Counted from the stretch's first letter, positions 27,724 through 63,282 are shown. The stretch is DNA of 64,000 bases from a virus (IMGVR_UViG_3300005841_000939), one strand, 5' to 3'. A program made the numbers and translations. The notes: generated by a model from the letters alone, not told the origin.

Positions 27724-28158
27724 ATGATAAGTTATGTTTTAGGCTTTGCATTTTCAAGTAATGAAAATGATGTATTATTAATTCAGAAAATCAAACCAAA
27801 GTGGCAAAATGGTAAACTGAATGGAATTGGTGGCAAAGTTGAAGAAGGTGAAACTTCCAAATTTGCGATGGTTCGTGAATTCAACGAAGAAGTTGCATTA
27901 ACAACAACTGAAGATGATTGGAGTCACGAATTAACTATGCGTGGCGTTGAATCTGGCTTTAATGTTGATGTATTTTCAATGTTCAGCGATAATATTTACA
28001 ACTTTAAGCATGTTGAAGCTGAAATTCCTTTTATATTTTCAGTTGATGCGTTGGCGCAATCGGATAAAGTTCTTCTCAATTTGAAATGGTTGATTCCATT
28101 GATTCTTGATCATGAATGGAGCCGAATTGGTCATCGTCCAATTATTCCATATAGATAA
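27724..28158 (+). CDS. Nudix hydrolase (MutT-like)
   Basis: Nudix box GGKVEEGETSKFAMVREFNEE. Confidence 0.88.
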   Translation: MISYVLGFAFSSNENDVLLIQKIKPKWQNGKLNGIGGKVEEGETSKFAMVREFNEEVALTTTEDDWSHELTMRGVESGFNVDVFSMFSDNIYNFKHVEAEIPFIFSVDALAQSDKVLLNLKWLIPLILDHEWSRIGHRPIIPYR

Positions 28159-51804: not shown

Positions 51805-52547
51805 GTGATCGTATGAAGGCATATGAATATGCTTCTTCTACACACTTAATGCAAGGTACACCAAAAATAATTAGATTGGATGGTAAGGCATTCCATACCT
51901 TTTTGAAAAATTGTCAAAAGCCATACGACATAAAACCAATGGAAGCAATGATTGCCGGTGCAATTGAAGTTATGAAAGAAATTGGCGGAAGTGCCAGGCT
52001 TGCATATATTCAATCCGATGAATGCTCTATTGTTTTGAATGATAGCATTTCAAGGGAGTTTTCACCTTGGTTCAGCAACAATATTCAAAAAGTTGTTTCT
52101 GTTTCATCAGCTATTTTCACCGCAGCATTCAATAAAAAATATAATCGCGCTGATGGAAAAATGGGATTATTTGATGCCAGATTCTTCCAAGTTCCACACG
52201 AAGAAGAAATGATCAACAATTTGATTTGGCGTCAATCTGATGCAACTCGTAACAGTGTAAGTCAGTATGCTAGAAGTTTCTTTTCACAAAAAGAACTGAC
52301 TGGCATGAACATATCCGAGATGCAGGATATGATGATGACCAAGGGTTTCAACTGGAACAATGCTGATACCTGGACAAAGCGCGGAATCGTGATAAACAGA
52401 AACTTCACAGGAGTAGGCGATCAGCAATGGGATGTTGACATGCAATGTCCCATTTTCAAGGATGGTAAAGACTATCTCAGAAAACGCTATCACCCAATAC
52501 CAGATGCGACAGCAACGCCTCAAAATGTTCATAGTGCTCAGGGGTGA
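51780..52547 (+). CDS. thg1: tRNA-His guanylyltransferase / Thg1-like 3'-5' polymerase
   Basis: LGDRMK.YE, RLDGKAFH, QSDE, QKVVS, FDAR, WRQSDATRNS. Confidence 0.92.
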   Translation: MGQDKTTLGDRMKAYEYASSTHLMQGTPKIIRLDGKAFHTFLKNCQKPYDIKPMEAMIAGAIEVMKEIGGSARLAYIQSDECSIVLNDSISREFSPWFSNNIQKVVSVSSAIFTAAFNKKYNRADGKMGLFDARFFQVPHEEEMINNLIWRQSDATRNSVSQYARSFFSQKELTGMNISEMQDMMMTKGFNWNNADTWTKRGIVINRNFTGVGDQQWDVDMQCPIFKDGKDYLRKRYHPIPDATATPQNVHSAQG

Positions 52548-52827
52548 CATTTCCCCTGAAGCTGCTGTAGTTGCAGCAAGTCATGCCTCTTTGGGTACTT
52601 ACCTAAATTGGAAAGATGATCCTGTTATGCAGGAATGGGAGAAAACATCTTTTGTCAAGATTTTGAAAAAATCTCTTCATAAAGATCATTTCAATTACAT
52701 CAAGTCTTTAGGTGAACATCGGGTTTTCACAGAAAGTACATTAGGTAATTCAGAAGTTTCTTTGGGTTTTAGGGTTGTAATCAATCCTAATCCATTACTT
52801 CTTGAAATTCCATTGTGGTCATTGTGA
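52504..52827 (+). CDS. PTH2-like protein (divergent)
   Basis: KMFIVLRGD...AVVAASHA, W...SFVKI, TE. Start at 52504 or 52525. Confidence 0.6.
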   Translation: MRQQRLKMFIVLRGDISPEAAVVAASHASLGTYLNWKDDPVMQEWEKTSFVKILKKSLHKDHFNYIKSLGEHRVFTESTLGNSEVSLGFRVVINPNPLLLEIPLWSL

Positions 52828-52849: not shown

Positions 52850-53077
52850 ATGTATAGCAACTGTGATTATAATCCTGGTTCAGACCAAATGTTTATTGTT
52901 GATTATGTTGTTATTAGGTTTAACAAACGTTTCAGTAGAACTCTTTTAACCTTTGCACCTAACAGAGAAATAGCTCAGCGCAAAGTGTACAGCCAAGAAA
53001 AATCCGACAAAGTAATCCTCATCAAAACATGGGGATGTTTTCCATGGGAAATGCATGATGATTCGTGTCCTAATTAG
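52850..53077 (+). CDS. Small hypothetical protein (ends in TAG)
   Basis: 75-aa ORF. Confidence 0.5.
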   Translation: MYSNCDYNPGSDQMFIVDYVVIRFNKRFSRTLLTFAPNREIAQRKVYSQEKSDKVILIKTWGCFPWEMHDDSCPN

Positions 53078-53354
53078 TCTTCTCTTCTGTGCTTTTCTTC
53101 ATGGCGCAGATGAAATTTATATGCTGACTCTCCAGGTGAAAGATTCATCTTGGTCATTGAGCATTTCAGAACATATAAAAAACAAAATGAACGCTGTTAA
53201 GTTTGATATTCAAACAACAAAAGAATATTACGATCAATGTGTAATTGGTCAAACATTAACATCAGATTTTAAAACTGGATCATTTATTTATCGTGGTGCA
53301 ATCAAATCAACCAAGGTTACAATCTTGGATAAGAAAATTCTGAAACCAGAATGA
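53055..53354 (+). CDS. Hypothetical secreted/periplasmic protein
   Basis: Signal-peptide-like N-terminus. Confidence 0.7.
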   Translation: MMIRVLISLLFCAFLHGADEIYMLTLQVKDSSWSLSISEHIKNKMNAVKFDIQTTKEYYDQCVIGQTLTSDFKTGSFIYRGAIKSTKVTILDKKILKPE

Positions 53355-53548
53355 GTCAAGATCCTTACATTGAACCAGAATGTATACCTGCCGAAGAACA
53401 GGTTGATGTACCTATTATTATTGATGGGCATCTTCTTATTACGTTAACTCTTGCTGCACATGCGCAGGGAATTACACTTAATGAGTTGTGTATTCGTATC
53501 TTACGTGAAGAGATAGAAAAAGATAAAGAAGGTAAAGCCAAGGATTGA
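53351..53548 (+). CDS. Small ribbon-helix-helix/HicB-C-like protein
   Basis: LAAHAQGITLNELC pattern. Confidence 0.45.
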   Translation: MSQDPYIEPECIPAEEQVDVPIIIDGHLLITLTLAAHAQGITLNELCIRILREEIEKDKEGKAKD

Positions 53549-53572
53549 CAAGGGATATGTAGATGGTATCGT
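53545..53572 (+). promoter_or_regulatory. Promoter-like TTGACA-N16-TATCGT of the pncB-nadE unit
   Basis: Perfect -35 hexamer; GAGG RBS and ATG 53593 downstream. Confidence 0.6.
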
Positions 53573-53592
53573 CTCAACAACGAGGGCGTACC

Positions 53593-54759
53593 ATGTTCAC
53601 TAGCTTCCTGGATCAAGACAAATACAAGCTGGATATGGCTTTTGCCATTCTCATGCTTTTTCCAGGAACGGAAGTTGTATCAAGTTTCATTAATCGGCGC
53701 GCTGATGATACGTTTGATGACCGTTTCTTGGCGATACTCCAAGATGAATTGGCTCGCATCAAAACTATCACTCTCAACAATGAAGAATATAAGTGGTTGG
53801 TTGAACGTAAGGATCTTCACTATAATCCGATGTTTTATGAATGGTTGAAAAATTATCGTTTCAATCCGAGTGGCGAAGTTTACATATACATTGAAGAAGG
53901 ACAACTCAAAATAATCATCAAGGGGTTGTGGGAGAGAACGATTTTTTGGGAAATCATTCTCATGGAAACCATTTCGGAAATTTATTTCAAACTCAAAGGT
54001 GTCAAGTTTGATGGGATGGAGTATTACAAAAATACTCTGAGGAAGAAACAAATTCTCAGCATCAATAAATGCTATTTCAGTGAATTCGGTAGTCGTCGTC
54101 GTTTTTCGTCGGAAGCGCATGAAATCGTTATTCAAGCTCTTTCGGCAAAAACTGATGAATATGAAAATACTTTTGTCGGTACCAGTAATATGCACTTTGC
54201 TCGGATGTATGGTCTGAAACCGATCGGAACGAAAGCACACGAATTTACCATGGGGATTTCGGCCCTATGTGGGTTGATGTATGCAAATCGTTTTGATTTG
54301 GAGTACTGGCAAAAGGTCTACCCCGGTACAAACAGTATCGCACTGACTGATACGTTTGGCACTGATGCTTTTTTCAAAGACTTCACCCTCTATCATGCAA
54401 AACTGTATGATGGTTTGCGTCATGATTCAGGTAGCCCATATGAATTCGCTGATAAGGTCGTTGCTCATTATGAAAAATTGGGCATTGATCCGAAGCGAAA
54501 GATCATCGTATTCAGTGATGGATTAAATCCCGATGAATGCGTAAAAATCAGAAAACATGTCGGTGATCGCATCGCATGTTCATTTGGCATCGGAACCAAT
54601 TTCACCAACGATGTTCCTGGCAATCGTGCTTTGAACATGGTCATCAAACTCCGTCAAGTGAACGGAGTTGAAGTAGTGAAGATTTCGGACAATCCAAGTA
54701 AAGCAACTGGCGATCAAAGTGCGCTAGATATTGCTTTCAAAACTTTCGGTATCAAGTAA
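53593..54759 (+). CDS. pncB: Nicotinate phosphoribosyltransferase
   Basis: DQDKYK, EFGSRRRFS, GTSN, GTKAHE, LTDTFG, RHDSG, FSDGL, FGIGTN, VKISD.P.K. Confidence 0.93.
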   Translation: MFTSFLDQDKYKLDMAFAILMLFPGTEVVSSFINRRADDTFDDRFLAILQDELARIKTITLNNEEYKWLVERKDLHYNPMFYEWLKNYRFNPSGEVYIYIEEGQLKIIIKGLWERTIFWEIILMETISEIYFKLKGVKFDGMEYYKNTLRKKQILSINKCYFSEFGSRRRFSSEAHEIVIQALSAKTDEYENTFVGTSNMHFARMYGLKPIGTKAHEFTMGISALCGLMYANRFDLEYWQKVYPGTNSIALTDTFGTDAFFKDFTLYHAKLYDGLRHDSGSPYEFADKVVAHYEKLGIDPKRKIIVFSDGLNPDECVKIRKHVGDRIACSFGIGTNFTNDVPGNRALNMVIKLRQVNGVEVVKISDNPSKATGDQSALDIAFKTFGIK

Positions 54760-54767
54760 GGACTATC

Positions 54768-56549
54768 ATGCTCAACGTCGCTCTCTGCCAGATCAATACT
54801 ACGCCAAATCGGTTCAAGCAGAATTTTGAATTGATTGTGCAGTGTTTGAAAATTGCCAACGAACACTCAAATGATATTCCTGTTGATTTGGTTGTGTTCC
54901 CTGAACTGACCATTCCTGGGTACTTGAGCAAAGATTTAGTGTATACCGAAGATTACATCAGAAATAACAAAAAATATCTCAATCTGATTATTGAAGAAAT
55001 TGATAACAATTTTAGAGATTTGTACGATTCAAGAATTGTAGTTGGATATTTTGACATCAATCCTGAAGGTATTGGCAAACCTTTTACCAATCGTCTTGCT
55101 GTCATTCATCGTGGAATCATTGAAGCAACTTACACCAAACATCTTCTTCCGTTTTATGATGTGTTTGATGAAGCACGGTATTGTGAACCAGGTAAAGATC
55201 ATTTGGTGATCAATATTGATGGTCATAAAGTCGGCTTCACTATATGCGAAGATTTGTGGAATGACAAATTGGTTGATAATTATGCATATGCTGACAACCC
55301 AATTGAATATTATCGCAATGTTGGTTGTGATACTATCGTCAATATCAGCAGCAGTCCTTTCGTTCAAGAGAAACCAAACTTTCGTCAGCATATGATTGAA
55401 GAAATCAGCAAAGACAAAAAACTGACCATCATTTATTGCAATCAACAGGGTGGTCAGGATGATTTGTATTTTGATGGCCGTAGCACCATTGTCATGAATG
55501 GTATGACTCATTTGATTATGGATCCAACCGCAAATGATATTGAGGTTGAATTTCATACTACTGATAAAAACAATTGGGGACACTTCATATCAAACATTCG
55601 CATTAAAGATGAAATGGAATATTTATTTAACGTCATCGTTAATTCATTGAGGGACTATATTCACAAAAGCGGATTTAAAAGCATCGTTTTGGGTAGCTCA
55701 GGTGGAATAGATAGCGCATTGGTTGCTGCTTTGGCAAAACATGCAATTGGTGGTGAAAATGTTCACTGTATAATGATGCCTTCAAAATATAGCAGTGATG
55801 GAAGCGTAAATGATGCGAAAGAATTGCATCGGAATATTGGATGTAATGAATATGAAATGCGTATTGATCCTGCTGATTTTTATGTTAAATTCAAACAAGG
55901 TTATGATAATGGCATCCTCACCAAAGCTGACATTTTTGGAACTAAAGAATATACGAAGCATCATCCAAGTGCTGATGAAAATCTTCAAGCGCGCATGCGT
56001 GCTCTGAATGTAATGTATTTCAGTAATGGATTTGGTGCATTAGCACTGACTACTGGTAACAAAACAGAATTGGCCACAGGGTATTTCACGCTGTATGGAG
56101 ATTCGTGTGGTGGATATGCACCATTGAAAGATTTGTATAAGATGCAAATCTTTGAAATGGCCAAATGGATTAATAAAAAGTTTGGTCCGACTATTCCCGA
56201 AAATATTATCAATAAGGCACCGAGTGCTGAATTGGCTCCGGATCAAACCGATGAAGAGAGTTTGTTGCCATATCCGATTCTTGACAGAATCGTAAAATAT
56301 TTTATTGAATATTATGTGACTACTCCTGAAGGATTTAAGCGCACGGTTGTTCTTGATGATGAACATAGCATTGATGCGAATTATCAAGCAGCAATTGCTT
56401 GGATGAAAACTGATAGTTGGAAAGCTGAATACAAGCGGATCATTGATTTGATCAACCGTAATGAATTCAAACGTCAGCAAGCAGCGCCAGGAATCAAATT
56501 GAGCAAGGTATCGTTTGGTTCGGGTCGTCGCGTTCCGATTGTGAAATAA
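54768..56549 (+). CDS. nadE: Glutamine-dependent NAD+ synthetase (nitrilase domain plus synthetase domain)
   Basis: FPEL, K..LP.Y.VFDE.RY, ICEDLW; SGGIDSA, ENLQARMR, TGNKTE...GYFTLYGD, PSAEL. Confidence 0.95.
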   Translation: MLNVALCQINTTPNRFKQNFELIVQCLKIANEHSNDIPVDLVVFPELTIPGYLSKDLVYTEDYIRNNKKYLNLIIEEIDNNFRDLYDSRIVVGYFDINPEGIGKPFTNRLAVIHRGIIEATYTKHLLPFYDVFDEARYCEPGKDHLVINIDGHKVGFTICEDLWNDKLVDNYAYADNPIEYYRNVGCDTIVNISSSPFVQEKPNFRQHMIEEISKDKKLTIIYCNQQGGQDDLYFDGRSTIVMNGMTHLIMDPTANDIEVEFHTTDKNNWGHFISNIRIKDEMEYLFNVIVNSLRDYIHKSGFKSIVLGSSGGIDSALVAALAKHAIGGENVHCIMMPSKYSSDGSVNDAKELHRNIGCNEYEMRIDPADFYVKFKQGYDNGILTKADIFGTKEYTKHHPSADENLQARMRALNVMYFSNGFGALALTTGNKTELATGYFTLYGDSCGGYAPLKDLYKMQIFEMAKWINKKFGPTIPENIINKAPSAELAPDQTDEESLLPYPILDRIVKYFIEYYVTTPEGFKRTVVLDDEHSIDANYQAAIAWMKTDSWKAEYKRIIDLINRNEFKRQQAAPGIKLSKVSFGSGRRVPIVK

Positions 56550-56553
56550 TCAA

Positions 56554-56649
56554 ATGATTACCACCATTGTAATCATTGACATCATCATTATAGTATGTAC
56601 TCCGTACATTCTTAAAGTTTGTGCAGATGCATTCACCAAAGGTTTATAA
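56554..56649 (+). CDS. Tiny hydrophobic ORF (31 aa), not in ORF track
   Basis: MITTIVIIDIIIIVCTPYILK; TAATG-coupled to the next gene. It overlaps a promoter-like element, so it may be spurious. Confidence 0.3.
   Translation: MITTIVIIDIIIIVCTPYILKVCADAFTKGL
56567..56594 (+). promoter_or_regulatory. Promoter-like TTGTAA-N16-TATAGT
   Basis: Between nadE and the Nudix gene. Confidence 0.45.
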
Positions 56650-57398
56650 TGTACGATATTGACGCAATTACGATCCGTAAAGCTGCTGAAAAAGCCTGTG
56701 GTGAAGGGACTCAAGTTTCTCATCCAATCTATGTTGCGGATGATCATGTTCTTGTAAACGTGACACCAAAGCAAAGCAGAAGTTTTCGAGGCAAGTTTTA
56801 TTTTAAGCTTGGCTCATTTGATCACAAAGAAATACCTGTCCAGGAAACAACCATGTCTGAACTCCCTGATAATGCTGAAATCCTCTATCATGGCAAATGG
56901 TTGCTACTTGGCAAAATTGGTCATTATGAATTCATGCATCGTCATCGCAAGCCAAAGGCAGTGATGATCGTTGCAATTACGACTGACAACCATCTGATCC
57001 TGACTGTTCAGAAGCGGGTTCCCCATAAACTTCCAGTGGTTGAAATTCCTGCTGGCTTGGTTGATGATGGTGAGACATATGAAGATACTGCGGCAAGAGA
57101 ATTGCTTGAGGAGTGTGGATACAAAGGTAATAATCCAATCATCACCCGCGAAATTAGTACAACTCCTGGCATTTGCACAGAGACAATTCCCTTCGCTATC
57201 ATCACTGATTGCGTAAAAGTTGGCGAAGGTGGCGGTTTGGAAGAAGAAGGTGAAAACATCACCACTGAACTATTGAATATTGAAGAAAGCCCATTCTATC
57301 CAATGAACGACTTGGGAAGAAGATTTCCGAGTGATAAGTTTTTGCTGGATATGAAACTTTATGCTGGGCTTTTCGTCGCATATATTCACAAAAAATGA
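56649..57398 (+). CDS. ADP-ribose pyrophosphatase-type Nudix hydrolase with 68-aa N-terminal extension
   Basis: AVMIVA, Q.R.P, VEIPAGLVDDGETYEDTAARELLEECGY, GGG..EEGENI. Confidence 0.85.
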   Translation: MYDIDAITIRKAAEKACGEGTQVSHPIYVADDHVLVNVTPKQSRSFRGKFYFKLGSFDHKEIPVQETTMSELPDNAEILYHGKWLLLGKIGHYEFMHRHRKPKAVMIVAITTDNHLILTVQKRVPHKLPVVEIPAGLVDDGETYEDTAARELLEECGYKGNNPIITREISTTPGICTETIPFAIITDCVKVGEGGGLEEEGENITTELLNIEESPFYPMNDLGRRFPSDKFLLDMKLYAGLFVAYIHKK

Positions 57399-57399
57399 C

Positions 57400-57879
57400 A
57401 TGAATTATCATAACGATCTTTGTAAATTCCATGGAAAATTTACAGAGTTGATTCCTGCAGGTTGGAAGTTTCAAAAACTTTTTGCTAGCAATTATAGACA
57501 ATATTCTTTTGAGGTAACTCCGTACGAATATATCCGAGTTTGGCAAGCACATGGAGGATATATTGAAATTCGTGATTTCTATAGTGCAACTAAACAAATT
57601 GTTGAAGCTGTACTATTAAACAACTTTCAATGGCATACTTACGCTGGTCTAGATTCATATGGTTTCACAATTGATCGTGAAACTGGAAAAATTATTCCTC
57701 AATTACCAGAACATGATGCTATGCATGTCGTTTGGACTGCTGAAAAGGCCGGAAAATCAGCAGATGAAATAGGAACTCTGGTGGATGCAACTTATAAGAA
57801 ATATAGCAAGGCACGAATTGATGGTAATATGATTAATGCTATCAAAGACTTAGCAAATAGAGGTTGGATAAAAGTTTGA
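57400..57879 (+). CDS. Hypothetical protein
   Basis: GWKFQKLFASNY. Confidence 0.7.
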   Translation: MNYHNDLCKFHGKFTELIPAGWKFQKLFASNYRQYSFEVTPYEYIRVWQAHGGYIEIRDFYSATKQIVEAVLLNNFQWHTYAGLDSYGFTIDRETGKIIPQLPEHDAMHVVWTAEKAGKSADEIGTLVDATYKKYSKARIDGNMINAIKDLANRGWIKV

Positions 57880-57917: not shown

Positions 57918-58736
57918 ATGAAAATAATCGGCGCTGACTACGAATGTGGACAAAAGATAAAAGGCGTTGGTGAGGCTTTCAATAAGCTACGATCTTATTT
58001 GTTAACTAGAACTTCCAATTTGCATTTACTTGAGAAAGATCCTGATCAAACATCAGGATCTTTTTTATTATCCTTGCATAACTTGATAAAAGATAATCTG
58101 AATGATTTTGTATTAAACATTGGCGGCGATCACACTATTGGTTGTGCAACTGCGTCAGCAACCAAGCGCATTTACCCGAAGACATCATTGATTTGGATTG
58201 ATGCTCATGGCGACTTCAACAATTTTAAATCGTCATTAACTAAAAGTATGCATGGAATGCCATTGAATGCTTTGCGTTTTGGTTCAGCAACATTTGCAGA
58301 AGAAAAAGATTTTGATTGGCTAGGATACGGTTTATATAGTAGCCCTGAAATATGCATAATTGGATTAAGAGACGTTGATCCTGAAGAATTAGAAATGCTT
58401 AAAACTTTTGGCATTGCATATTTTGGAATGTTTGAAATAAAATCATTAGGAATAGAAAAAATTGCGCAAATGGCCCTTGAAGCGGTAGATCCCTGGAACA
58501 CGGGAACATACCATATTTCATGTGATGTTGATTCCATGTCATGGGACGAATTTCCTGCAACTGGTTGCATTACTCCTGGAGGTCTAACAGTGAGCGAATT
58601 CAAGCAACTCATAAGTCTTTTCCAGAAAACAGGTAAGGTTAAAGCTATAGATTTAGTAGAATATAACCCTATGCTGGATAAAGAAAACACTTGCTATGAA
58701 AAAATGTGTAACATAATCGCCACCATCACCCAATGA
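57918..58736 (+). CDS. Arginase-family ureohydrolase
   Basis: GGDHT, WIDAHGD, HGMPL, IGLRDVD, DVD, PGGL, DLVEYNP; Mn ligands intact. Confidence 0.92.
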   Translation: MKIIGADYECGQKIKGVGEAFNKLRSYLLTRTSNLHLLEKDPDQTSGSFLLSLHNLIKDNLNDFVLNIGGDHTIGCATASATKRIYPKTSLIWIDAHGDFNNFKSSLTKSMHGMPLNALRFGSATFAEEKDFDWLGYGLYSSPEICIIGLRDVDPEELEMLKTFGIAYFGMFEIKSLGIEKIAQMALEAVDPWNTGTYHISCDVDSMSWDEFPATGCITPGGLTVSEFKQLISLFQKTGKVKAIDLVEYNPMLDKENTCYEKMCNIIATITQ

Positions 58737-58749
58737 TGGAGACCTTATT

Positions 58750-59172
58750 ATGAGCAGCAACCACGGTGCTGACACTGCCCGCGTTATGGATGACATGCGT
58801 CGTCAAACCAAGAAGAAGCAAGCCAAGAAGACCGTGATCGCCGGCAAGGCTGAATTGGAAGATGTCCGTCTTCCTACGACTCTCAATGCCAAGTTCGGCG
58901 GTGCGACTGCTGCAAGCATCGCTGAATTCTTCAAGGAAAATCCTTCCCAAATGATCACGACGGACGATATCCGTCAACGTTTCGTGAAGGGTGAAACCAT
59001 CTACGTCGAAGGTACCGACGACTTCCTGCCAACTCTCAAGGGTACGGTCATCGCTATCACCAAGGATGGCATCGATTCTCCTCTCACTCTCTACCAGGTC
59101 AACGTCTGGCTTGGTGGTGGTTTCGGTCTGATCTTCAACAAGGATCGGTACGGAAAAGTCTACATCTACTAA
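58750..59172 (+). CDS. Hypothetical protein with strongly biased (C-ending) codons
   Basis: GGAG RBS; basic N-terminus and beta-rich C-terminus. Confidence 0.8.
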   Translation: MSSNHGADTARVMDDMRRQTKKKQAKKTVIAGKAELEDVRLPTTLNAKFGGATAASIAEFFKENPSQMITTDDIRQRFVKGETIYVEGTDDFLPTLKGTVIAITKDGIDSPLTLYQVNVWLGGGFGLIFNKDRYGKVYIY

Positions 59173-60255: not shown

Positions 60256-60689
60256 ACAACATCAATTACAAGGAAGCTATTCGCTTCCTCAAGAAGCTTC
60301 TTAAAAACGATGCCGACATCGTTCGTGAAGCAAACAAGACCATTCAAAAGAATCAACGTATCCTTTCAGCCTGCATAAAGGCAGATCCTGAAAAGGCCAA
60401 GAAAGAACCTTTCTCTGCATATAAATCTGCGGAAGAAAAGTTTATAAAATTTGACAAGACGTGCGAGGTTTACACGTTCTTTAGTTATTGGGACTGTTCA
60501 CATCCTCATTCTGGTTTGACAATTGCGCATGTGCTTTATAATCAGTTAAGAAATAAAAAGGCACATACACACGATGATCAAATTATCATTGCTACCTCGG
60601 CTTATCAAAAACTTGTGGACGGATTGGAAAAACTCTTCCCGGTACTGGAAGATAATTCTGAGTCAGCCAACACCAGTTGCCCCACCTAA
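60249..60689 (+). CDS. Hypothetical protein
   Basis: AAGGA RBS; likely start MDYNINYKE. Confidence 0.7.
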   Translation: MDYNINYKEAIRFLKKLLKNDADIVREANKTIQKNQRILSACIKADPEKAKKEPFSAYKSAEEKFIKFDKTCEVYTFFSYWDCSHPHSGLTIAHVLYNQLRNKKAHTHDDQIIIATSAYQKLVDGLEKLFPVLEDNSESANTSCPT

Positions 60690-60705
60690 CGAAGATAATA
60701 CGAAC

Positions 60706-61032
60706 ATGCTTAAATGTTTTGTTATTATCCGTAAGGATATCCTATCAGCGGTTCAATGTGGTGTGCAAGGTGCACACGCATTGGCCGAACTGGTGTCAAT
60801 CAAAGATGAAATTCCTGCTGTAGATGATTGGGTCAAGCATCACAAGACCCTGATTTTCTTGGCAGGTACTGATGAAGATTTTGCAAATGCAAAAGTGCTT
60901 TATCATCGGCATGGATTAAAGTATGCTGATTTCCTTGAGCCCGATCTTGGAAATATTATCACAGCAACGGCTTTTGAGCCGATTGATCGTGAACTCGGCA
61001 AGAAAATCTTCGGACATTTGAAGCTCATATGA
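60706..61032 (+). CDS. PTH2-like protein (divergent)
   Basis: CFVIIRKDI...VQGAHALAE, W...HKTLI, FLEPDL...TATAFEP, FGHLKLI. Confidence 0.7.
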   Translation: MLKCFVIIRKDILSAVQCGVQGAHALAELVSIKDEIPAVDDWVKHHKTLIFLAGTDEDFANAKVLYHRHGLKYADFLEPDLGNIITATAFEPIDRELGKKIFGHLKLI

Positions 61033-61391
61033 GTTTCCTATGGTTCTTGTTCCTGGGAGTATTCTATTGGGTACTCTCAGGAACGTTTGTATTTTTTATT
61101 CATCATTATTTGTATTTTAGGGGAATGCGAAATAACATTCACCTATACATGGTAAGTAAAAATGAAGGACGAGAAAAAATTGCAATAACCTTAATGAAGT
61201 TGCTTGAAATTTCAACCATTGAACAGTTATACGATAAGAAAACCTCTATGGCCTCAGCAGAGGTTGTTTTCCTGAGTATAGCATTGATCTTTGGACCCTT
61301 TAAAATTATTGACTTTGCACAAGATGTGATATTCTTTTCGTTTAAGTGGAGACCTACAGATGATACCAGCAATAGAAATCAAGAAAATTGA
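61029..61391 (+). CDS. Hypothetical membrane protein
   Basis: Hydrophobic N-terminal and internal segments. Confidence 0.6.
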   Translation: MSFLWFLFLGVFYWVLSGTFVFFIHHYLYFRGMRNNIHLYMVSKNEGREKIAITLMKLLEISTIEQLYDKKTSMASAEVVFLSIALIFGPFKIIDFAQDVIFFSFKWRPTDDTSNRNQEN

Positions 61392-63282
61392 AGGTAAACT
61401 TGATGATGCGTTGGCACTCTATACGAATTTTGGTGACAGCGGAATAAGTGACGCAGAATATGACAGTCTTATTGATAGACTTCGTGTTTTAGATCCGAAG
61501 AATAAACGTCTCAAATCAGTTGGTGCTGATGTACCAGATGATTCCAAATGGGAAAAATACATTCATGCTGAATATCCTTTGGGTTCTCAGAGCAAAGTCG
61601 TCAATTTTCCTGATTTGAAGGCGTGGTCACAAAAGTTTCCTGGAAGTGAATATGCGATAGAACATAAATTGGATGGTTCATCGCTCAAGATGATTTACGA
61701 AAATGGAAAATTTACAAAAGGTATAACGCGTGGCAAAAATAAAATTGGTGAAGACATTACAAGAAATGTCCTCAAAATGCAAGGTGTCCCTAAAACGATC
61801 AGCGAAAAACGCAGGGTCATCGTTCGTTCGGAAACTCTCCTCTATAAATCCAAACTGGATAAGGTAGGCGGAAAGAATACCCGAAATACTTCGGTAGGAA
61901 CTGCCAAGCGTCATGATGGTGTAGGATGCAATCATTTAAATGTGGTTGCATACAATATCATGAATTGGAAAGAGCTTGGAATAAAAACCCATGCTGAAAT
62001 GGTAAAGACCCTAAAAGATTGGGGATTCACGACTGTATCATTTCAAGGTCCGTTTAAAACAATTGAAGAAGTTGAAAAGGTCAAAATTGAATGGGAAACC
62101 AATACCCGTAAAAATCTTGATTGGGATATTGACGGATTAGTGATTGTGGTTAATGCCCTGGCAGATGATGCGTGGGATTATCCAACCAGGGCAATTGCTT
62201 ATAAATTTGCATCTGAGGAAGCTGTAACAAAACTACTCGCAGTTGAATGGCGTGATACTGGCGGCAGAATTGCACCAAGGGCAATTCTTGAACCTGTCAA
62301 TATTGGTGGTGTTACTGTCACGCATGCCACCCTCAATAATGTTGATTTCATTAAAGAGAAGGGTGTGAAAATTAATGACCTCGTTATTGTCAGTAGACGT
62401 AATGACGTTATTCCTGCCGTTGAAGGCGTATCAATTGCTGCTGACGATGGAATTGAAATTAAAGCTCCAACAAAAGATGCTGACGGGTTCCCAATCGTCT
62501 TTGAAACGAACGTTGATGGTGAACAACTCGTATACCTGATCAGCACAAATCCAAATAGCAAATCCAAGAAGATCAGGAAAATCCTCGCTTGGTATCGTGA
62601 ACATGACACCAAAGGACTCGCTGGTGAAACGATTGAGGCTATTCTTGAAGCAAAGTGCGCAGATGATCTTCCTTCGTTCTATGACGTGGGAATTAATGGC
62701 CATGACAACCTGATGAATGTTGATGGCTTTGGTGCTGGCAAGTACAAAGTATTGCAAAAAGCGACTCTTCTGACCAGCCATACAGATATTATCAGATTCT
62801 TTGGTGGATTAGATATTCAGGGATTTGGGTCACGTCGGTTTGAATCCATCCTCAATCATCTGAATAGAAAAATTACTGCTAAAGAATTCAAGGAAGTCTG
62901 TCTTGATGTTGCAACAATTGCATCAATTCCGAAGTTCGGAGATAATACTGCACGTACTTTGGCGCAGGGCATTAATGAAAATGATAAAATCATAACTGCA
63001 ATGTTGTCAAGGGTTAAGTGTGATGATTGGGAGCCCGCTAAAGTTGCAGCAGGTTCTAAAGTTGCAGGAAAGACATTCTGTTTTACTGGTTCACATTCAA
63101 TGGATCGGGATGAGCTTGAGAAGCTTGTTAAAAAACATGGTGGACTTATTGCTGGAGTTAGTAAGAATCTAGATTATCTTGTTTCACCAGACGGCTGGAC
63201 CAGCGGAAAAGTTGATAAAGCAAAAAAGCTGGGAACTGAGATAATAAACGAAGAAACGTTTCTAAATATACTTGGAGGGTGA
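61360..63282 (+). CDS. ligA: NAD-dependent DNA ligase
   Basis: ISDAEYD, EHKLDG, TRG..IGEDIT, DIDGLVI, AIAYKF, ATLNN, RRNDVIP, HhH repeats, C-terminal BRCT (FCFTGS...GVSKNLDYLV). Confidence 0.95.
   Translation: MIPAIEIKKIEGKLDDALALYTNFGDSGISDAEYDSLIDRLRVLDPKNKRLKSVGADVPDDSKWEKYIHAEYPLGSQSKVVNFPDLKAWSQKFPGSEYAIEHKLDGSSLKMIYENGKFTKGITRGKNKIGEDITRNVLKMQGVPKTISEKRRVIVRSETLLYKSKLDKVGGKNTRNTSVGTAKRHDGVGCNHLNVVAYNIMNWKELGIKTHAEMVKTLKDWGFTTVSFQGPFKTIEEVEKVKIEWETNTRKNLDWDIDGLVIVVNALADDAWDYPTRAIAYKFASEEAVTKLLAVEWRDTGGRIAPRAILEPVNIGGVTVTHATLNNVDFIKEKGVKINDLVIVSRRNDVIPAVEGVSIAADDGIEIKAPTKDADGFPIVFETNVDGEQLVYLISTNPNSKSKKIRKILAWYREHDTKGLAGETIEAILEAKCADDLPSFYDVGINGHDNLMNVDGFGAGKYKVLQKATLLTSHTDIIRFFGGLDIQGFGSRRFESILNHLNRKITAKEFKEVCLDVATIASIPKFGDNTARTLAQGINENDKIITAMLSRVKCDDWEPAKVAAGSKVAGKTFCFTGSHSMDRDELEKLVKKHGGLIAGVSKNLDYLVSPDGWTSGKVDKAKKLGTEIINEETFLNILGG

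Follow-up and report, generated by a model that had tools for sequence, protein, structure and literature searches.

A pncB-nadE-Nudix gene block as a probable auxiliary NAD module of a T4-like jumbo phage

Organisation of the NAD gene block

Within a 64,000-nucleotide stretch of the virus record IMGVR_UViG_3300005841_000939, referred to below as the window, we examined a block of three plus-strand genes with predicted roles in the metabolism of nicotinamide adenine dinucleotide (NAD). These encode a nicotinate phosphoribosyltransferase (PncB), a glutamine-dependent NAD+ synthetase (NadE) and a Nudix hydrolase of the ADP-ribose pyrophosphatase (ADPRase) type. The three genes probably constitute an auxiliary module that acts on the NAD pool of a T4-like jumbo phage, and their order is conserved, together with an upstream Thg1 gene, in a lineage of soil phages.

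The pncB gene (53563-54759, +) encodes 398 amino acids, or 388 if translation begins at an alternative ATG at 53593, and nadE (54768-56549, +; 593 amino acids) starts 8 bases 3' of the pncB stop codon. After a gap of 99 bases follows the Nudix gene (56649-57398, +; 249 amino acids), which was typed by its motif and predicted fold. A gene for an NAD-dependent DNA ligase, a consumer of NAD, is located 4 kb downstream of the block (61360-63282, +; 640 amino acids). An earlier note on this DNA had listed these four functions, and all of them were recovered on the plus strand. The start of the Nudix gene had to be moved from the TTG at 56619 to the ATG at 56649, which is the start in the database copy (P0001) and in relatives with 62-64% identity. 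An independent assembly from another sample showed 99.99% identity across 15 kb.

Assignment of the three enzymes

PncB exceeded the cut-offs of two curated NCBIfam models (NF003704, 418.9 bits against a cut-off of 379; TIGR01514, 388.5 bits against 269.55) and contained the Pfam domains NAPRTase_N and NAPRTase. Its top solved relatives were NAPRTases throughout (1yir, 2im5, 3os4 and 1vlp). The GT-x-AHE motif has kept its histidine ('igtkaHeftm' aligned to 'lgtmaHewlm' of 1yir), which in Salmonella PncB is the site of ATP-dependent phosphorylation. None of the Nampt models of NCBIfam matched at E 0.001; against the phage Nampt PHROG the score was only 60 bits. Because the NAPRTase cut-offs were passed, the histidine was retained and the Nampt models failed to match or scored this low, the protein is predicted to be PncB rather than Nampt, as the earlier note had proposed, an assignment for which the scores against the curated profiles are decisive. 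The nearest PncB among 5.8 billion proteins was 53% identical.

NadE scored 504.5 bits against NF010588 (cut-off 479) and 361 bits against phrog_36784, and consisted of the Pfam domains CN_hydrolase and NAD_synthase. The comparison with the glutamine-dependent enzyme 5kha yielded an E-value of 5e-90, and both the Glu-Lys-Cys motifs of the glutaminase (FPEL, KHLLP, CEDLW) and the ATP loop SSGGIDS aligned with that structure. From these similarities the enzyme is predicted to be of the two-domain, glutamine-dependent type.

The third protein matched the Pfam NUDIX family with 45 bits and contained a complete Nudix box (G-x5-E-x7-REllEEcGy; motif GLVDDGETYEDTAARELLEECGY) that agrees with the consensus GX5EX7REUXEEXGU. 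The Gly, Glu, Arg-Glu and Glu-Glu positions of the box were invariant across 27 relatives. A proline was located at +15 from the box, in a position identical to that in the Bacillus ADP-ribose pyrophosphatase 8wv3; a proline about 15-16 residues past the box is reportedly a signature of ADPRases. By sequence, the nearest solved relatives were ADP-ribose and ADP-sugar pyrophosphatases. An AlphaFold (AF2) model inferred from 27 sequences had a predicted local distance difference test score (pLDDT) above 87 over residues 70-249, and the top 50 Foldseek matches to this model were all ADP-ribose or ADP-sugar pyrophosphatases, with template modelling (TM) scores by target of 0.65-0.86. Among the top matches were NUDT5, Thermus Ndx4, the Mycobacterium ADPRase (Mt-ADPRase) and Bdellovibrio NudF.

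Conservation and partner genes in other phages

We compared the gene order with that around two PncB homologues, the nearest ones whose surroundings could be read, which were about 48-50% identical. On one of them, the ENA scaffold L031, the order was Thg1, a small open reading frame (ORF), PncB, glutamine-type NadE, a Nudix protein of 173 amino acids, the NAD-dependent ligase and an opposed HATPase gene, and the protein identities to the window were 48% for PncB, 48% for NadE, 32% for the Nudix protein and 45% for the ligase, LigA. The other, a JGI contig of 365,913 bases, carried Thg1, a small ORF, PncB, glutamine-type NadE, another small ORF and a Nudix protein of 175 amino acids; no ligase was seen in the listed stretch of this contig. 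The backbone Thg1-PncB-NadE-Nudix is conserved in this soil-phage lineage, and in L031 the ligase comes next.

We also surveyed the partners of pncB in 26 IMG/VR records that contained a PncB homologue at 30-49% identity, a set that includes duplicate records of one species. A NadE (ammonia- and glutamine-type counted together) was encoded no more than 10 kb from pncB in 23 of the 26 records, a NadD-like gene (PF01467) in 13, a Nudix gene in 12 and a PncA-like gene (PF00857) in 10. The distance from pncB to nadE was at most 5.1 kb in all seven records of at least 200 kb that held both genes. The four genes pncB, nadE, nadD and nudix were contiguous in a complete record of 205 kb (G024), a relative from the same lineage had the order Thg1-pncB-nadE-nadD-nudix (G004), and one fragment contained nadD, pncB, nudix, nadE and pncA inside 13 kb (G002).

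A complete phage of 341 kb with direct terminal repeats (IMGVR_UViG_3300005512_000001, G001) carried pncB, nadE (315 amino acids) and pncA contiguously at 75.6-78.4 kb (locus L003), and no match to PF01467 (NadD/NMNAT) was found anywhere in its genome. The adenylylation step in this phage is either dependent on the host or carried out by an enzyme of an unrecognised type. The recurrent core in phages is thus pncB with nadE in nearly every record, while an ADPRase-type Nudix gene, nadD and pncA each occur in about half, and complete phages without nadD exist. This pattern can guide the choice of gene sets for testing the nicotinate route as a counter-defence.

Proposed function of the module

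The analysis establishes the gene identities, the intact catalytic motifs, the ADPRase-type fold and the conserved linkage in phages, whereas what follows on substrates and flux, on timing and on any role in defence is inference. PncB would convert nicotinate and phosphoribosyl pyrophosphate (PRPP) to nicotinate mononucleotide (NaMN), with ATP coupled via the conserved histidine. Conversion of NaMN to nicotinate adenine dinucleotide (NaAD) would be left to NadD, which could be the essential enzyme of the host or a distant phage copy, and NadE would then turn NaAD into NAD+ with ammonia channelled from its own glutaminase domain. In this scheme PncB would open and NadE would complete the nicotinate route, at steps that are expected to be ATP-driven and flux-setting. 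The Nudix hydrolase would split free ADP-ribose into AMP and ribose-5-phosphate, and its removal could clear a reactive by-product of NAD cleavage and send carbon back towards PRPP. The net result would be a raised or better-buffered NAD+ pool in the infected cell that might supply the NAD users of the phage, such as the adjoining ligase. As a side benefit or a second purpose, NAD depletion by NADase defences of the host may be softened. A general supply for the NAD users of the phage is at least as likely as counter-defence.

Several results weigh against such a module. The window corresponds to positions 25296-89295 of an IMG/VR record (G000) of 89,295 bases, which is estimated to be 42% complete and belongs to a longer contig of some 380 kb. 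NadD/NMNAT (PF01467), an isochorismatase-type PncA, Prs and PncC were not found in this record. The earlier note had stated that PncA, Prs and NadD were missing from the window, and their absence extends to the whole record; the route can therefore not run on the genes of the locus alone. Neither PnuC (NMN_transporter) nor a NadR-type kinase was found in the record, and its sole AAA_28 match (15.8 bits, 20 profile positions in a 314-residue frame) was well below the family cut-off. Furthermore, the Nudix protein scored below all curated subfamily cut-offs of NCBIfam, including those of TIGR00052 (YffH/AdpP; 34.3 bits, cut-off 79.55), NF008736 (NudE; 45.5 bits, cut-off 169) and NF008003 (20 bits, cut-off 248). 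Finally, just 5 of the 26 records with PncB had an NAD-dependent ligase. This weakens the idea that the module serves, as a general rule, to feed the ligase, and feeding of the ligase is for this reason not its general purpose.

A more specific proposal, which we hold only tentatively, is that the genes represent a dedicated counter-defence, that is, a fourth, deamidated NAD+ reconstitution pathway selected against NADase effectors such as Thoeris ThsA, DSR, SIR2-HerA and SEFIR. Its path would lead from nicotinamide to nicotinate, NaMN, NaAD and NAD+, with ADP-ribose recycled via ribose-5-phosphate. The partner survey is in line with this, in that a presumed ADP-ribose-splitting enzyme lies in or beside the pncB and nadE genes in 12 of the 26 phage records and the PncA-like gene beside pncB in 10 of them fits a recycling of both NADase products. 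Other phage NAD routes (NARP1, NARP2 and NARP3) do counter such defences, and the hypothesis has already been voiced for other phages (PMC11662467, PMC13384950). However, the locus has no defence-specific feature, the route has four steps and is costly in ATP, PncA and NadD are missing from the 89-kb record, and most hosts own the same enzymes and yet NADase defences work; an experimental test of the route was not found in the literature.

That counter-defence is a real and measurable function is accordingly a possibility we regard with some doubt, and one that is compatible with a general role in the NAD pool. The same doubt applies to the proposal that pncB, nadE and the ADPRase gene, with PncA and NadD from phage or host, amount to a fourth phage pathway of NAD+ reconstitution via deamidated intermediates that protects against NADase defences. 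If this is true, the pathway would also be effective against defences with products that NARP1 cannot reuse, for example the ADPR-1-phosphate of aRES, because a pyridine base and PRPP suffice.

Comparison with known phage NAD routes

Few outcomes of bacterial anti-phage defence are commoner than NAD+ depletion. For the rebuilding of NAD+, three routes of phages have been tested and proven experimentally, namely NARP1 (Adps and Namat), NARP2 (Nampt and Nmnat) and NARP3 (PnuC and a NadR-like protein; PMC13464706), all of which differ from the nicotinate route. A 2022 survey of viral NAD-ADPr systems dealt with NadV, NadM and NadR only, and pncB and nadE are unmentioned in bioRxiv 10.1101/2024.02.11.579819.

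The earlier note had described the locus as a different route. This is correct in so far as the deamidated intermediates are unlike those of NARP1, NARP2 and NARP3, but the route itself had already been described in clusters of pncB, nadD and nadE, e.g. in Kuafu_71, from 'NAD-jumbo phages' (Microbiome 2024; PMC11662467), for which an offset of the NAD depletion by defences was proposed. The same suggestion has been made for the cultured Xanthomonas phage X1 (PMC13384950). Both the nicotinate route in phages and the idea of counter-defence are thus in print as a hypothesis, and for that reason the locus opens no new question. What is new here is the Thg1-pncB-nadE-Nudix backbone of a soil-phage lineage and the statistics on the partners of pncB in phages; the locus provides a clean, conserved case from the T4-like jumbo phages of soil.

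The NAD-jumbo phages (PMC11662467) resemble the present phage in their jumbo size, the clustering of pncB with nadE, the presence of NAD consumers such as an NAD-dependent ligase and the proposed counter-defence. Those phages are from the animal gut, whereas the present one is a T4-like phage of the rhizosphere, where the cluster and the 89-kb record have no nadD and an ADPRase-type Nudix gene follows nadE. The class is defined by the complete pathway of PncB, NadD and NadE; PncB and NadE were seen in the 89,295 bases of the present phage, and PF01467 was unmatched there.

A further parallel is with NARP2 of Vibrio phage KVP40 (NadV, a Nampt, and NatV, a bifunctional NMNAT-Nudix protein), which is likewise a T4-like phage with a two-enzyme salvage from a pyridine base and PRPP and with a Nudix ADP-ribose pyrophosphatase activity attached to the pathway. 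The KVP40 route uses nicotinamide and amidated intermediates such as nicotinamide mononucleotide (NMN) and has no need for NadE, whereas the present phage has a nicotinate-type transferase that requires a separate NAD synthetase, and its Nudix gene stands alone. NARP1 and NARP3 share the proposed outcome, the restoration of NAD+ in the infected cell, and differ in chemistry. The genes of these routes were not recovered from the 89-kb record: for NARP1, there was no PRPS-like (Pribosyltran_N) match and PncB was the sole gene of the PF04095 family; for NARP2, the transferase is of the nicotinate type and PF01467 was unmatched; and for NARP3, both PnuC (NMN_transporter) and PF01467 were unmatched.

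Among cultured phages, the T4-like jumbo phage Atu_ph07 of Agrobacterium (MF403008; PMC6102473) has an annotated nicotinate phosphoribosyltransferase and NAD synthetase, and an 'ADP-ribose pyrophosphatase' gene 3 kb from the former. Unlike in the window, its nadE is not adjacent to pncB but 89 kb away, its PncB is only 29% identical, and NadR and PnuC are also present. With the bacterial Preiss-Handler pathway and pyridine nucleotide cycle (PncA, PncB, NadD and NadE, with a NudF-type ADPRase) the locus shares the enzyme families and catalytic motifs. In contrast to the bacterial genes, those studied here are viral and at most 53% identical to database homologues, and the 89 kb hold steps 1 and 3 and the ADPRase only.

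Substrates of the Nudix hydrolase and NadE

Since its scores are below every curated cut-off, the substrate of the Nudix hydrolase is suggested by motif and fold, which make it ADPRase-like; by score it falls outside the curated TIGR00052, NudE and NudF subfamilies. It is improbable, though less so than the alternatives discussed below, that its main substrate is another compound, such as NAD-capped RNA, NADH, NaAD or ADP-ribose-derived immune signals, with a loose tie to the rebuilding of NAD. Besides the low subfamily scores, this possibility draws on an N-terminal extension of about 70 residues (residues 1-70, 56649-56860; pLDDT 34-57) that is restricted to the closest clade, four relatives with 62-64% identity; farther relatives have DUF6794 in its place, or nothing. 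Nudix enzymes of phages are known to be promiscuous, as shown by the activity of T4 NudE on ADP-ribose, FAD and Ap3A (PMC9503650), and other phage enzymes that degrade ADP-ribose-based signals have been reported (PMC13232231). Against it, the nearest solved relatives by both sequence and fold are all ADP-ribose or ADP-sugar pyrophosphatases, the proline at +15 is of the ADPRase type and the gene is repeatedly linked to pncB, nadE and nadD in phages. The window contains another, shorter Nudix gene (27724-28158, +; 32 bits at positions 53055-53201 of the record), which is unlinked to the NAD genes.

We consider it very improbable that NadE amidates NaMN in the manner of an NMN synthetase, as the Francisella enzyme is said to do, thereby bypassing NadD, with a NadM- or NadR-type NMN adenylyltransferase for the last step. 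Such an activity would be consistent with 89 kb without NadD and with the complete 341-kb relative, in which pncB, nadE and pncA occur with zero PF01467 genes. However, the NadE of the window is of the two-domain glutamine type and nearest to 5kha, 3n05 and 4f4h, with a far weaker match to the single-domain Francisella enzyme 3fiu (74 bits versus 306). Moreover, an NMN adenylyltransferase would itself belong to PF01467, of which there is none in the 89-kb record. The general supply of NAD through NaAD, with NadD from the host or from a distant phage copy, remains our preferred reading.

Phage origin of the locus

The genes of the window include T4-type topoisomerase II subunits, a clamp loader, a primase and a thymidylate synthase, and upstream of the NAD block are one or more RNA ligases, an HD protein, UvdE and Thg1. 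The NAD block lies among the replication and repair genes of a T4-like jumbo phage from rhizosphere or soil. The record is labelled 'provirus' in IMG/VR. The phage's own Nudix protein is also listed for a contig with a length of 379,560 bases; because of this and the T4-like jumbo-phage content the label is most likely a cutting artefact of host-region trimming. The G+C content at third codon positions (GC3) of the three NAD genes was somewhat elevated in comparison with the mean of the window (z of +1 to +2), and that of pncB was 2 standard deviations above; as the nearest PncB is only 53% identical, these genes were not captured recently.

That the NAD genes are carried by host chromosome wrongly joined to the record, as the label, the GC3 of pncB and a rise in G+C content from about 0.33 to about 0.38-0.40 across the last 14 kb might suggest, can practically be dismissed, since phage genes lie upstream (RNA ligases, Thg1 and UvdE) as well as downstream (a phage-type LigA) of the block, other jumbo-phage contigs share its gene order with an identity of about 48%, even the nearest PncB homologue is too distant for a recent capture and the phage contig is 379,560 bases long.

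Promoter-like sites and the start of pncB

A sigma-70-like promoter match, TTGACA-16-TATCGT with a TG (53545-53572, +), agrees with the consensus at 10 of 12 positions, and a second promoter-like match, TTGTAA-16-TATAGT (56567-56594, +; 9 of 12), lies in the gap between nadE and the Nudix gene; both are consensus matches only. The first one overlaps the final codon and stop of an upstream ORF of 65 codons as well as the first ATG of pncB at 53563, and because of this overlap it is usable for pncB only with Met11 (ATG 53593) as the start of translation. This codon is preceded by GAGGG, and the N-termini of the ten nearest PncB homologues are located 2-4 residues ahead of the Met11 position, which makes Met11 no worse a start than Met1. 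In the region, 60 promoter-like sites were observed compared to 44 +/- 6 in shuffled sequences. As the matches are only slightly commoner than in the shuffles, neither site counts as evidence of function. The promoter that the earlier note had placed ahead of PncB is thus real as a pattern and weak as evidence. The T4-type late promoter TATAAATA was rejected as a driver of the block; it occurs in 2 copies in the window, which is below the chance expectation, and none is near the block.

Neighbouring genes

Compared to L031, the window contains an insertion between the Nudix and ligase genes that consists of ORF172, an arginase-family gene, a GC-rich ORF, a tRNA, a patatin gene and a PTH2 (peptidyl-tRNA hydrolase 2) gene. 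ORF172 (57361-57879, +) overlaps the end of the Nudix gene by 38 bases, stop codon included, but translation probably begins only around codon 17-20. The family to which it belongs comprises at least 122 clusters with proteins of about 160 amino acids; Pfam, PHROG and Atlas gave no match, and one homologue is located among unrelated orphan genes of phages. The AlphaFold model was of high confidence (pLDDT 93, predicted TM score 0.84), the comparison with the PDB gave nothing meaningful (Foldseek E > 0.5; best VIA Z 5.1) and the sole partner in AFDB was one unnamed cluster. That ORF172 encodes an unrecognised enzyme of the pathway, such as a substitute for NadD, was rejected on the grounds that there was no family match and no meaningful PDB match and that the family is missing from the other 28 PncB loci.

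The arginase-family gene (57918-58736, +; 272 amino acids) retains the metal and substrate motifs GGDH, DAHGD, DVDS and E-x-NP, and its top solved relatives are eukaryotic arginases (Plasmodium, Leishmania and human). The N-terminus is about 30 residues shorter, the score against TIGR01229 was below the cut-off (174 against 227.6) and the gene is missing from related PncB loci. The adjacent ORF of 140 codons (58750-59172, +) has a G+C content of 0.51 and a GC3 of 0.62, which is 4.5 standard deviations above the other window genes; it had no family or Atlas matches and the Atlas model was poor, and it represents either a recent acquisition or a non-gene. The NAD block is flanked by two PTH2-like ORFs, a weak one at 52432-52827 (+; 19.7 bits) and one above the cut-off at 60574-61032 (+; 24.7 bits), both of which are near Thg1, patatin and suppressor tRNA genes.

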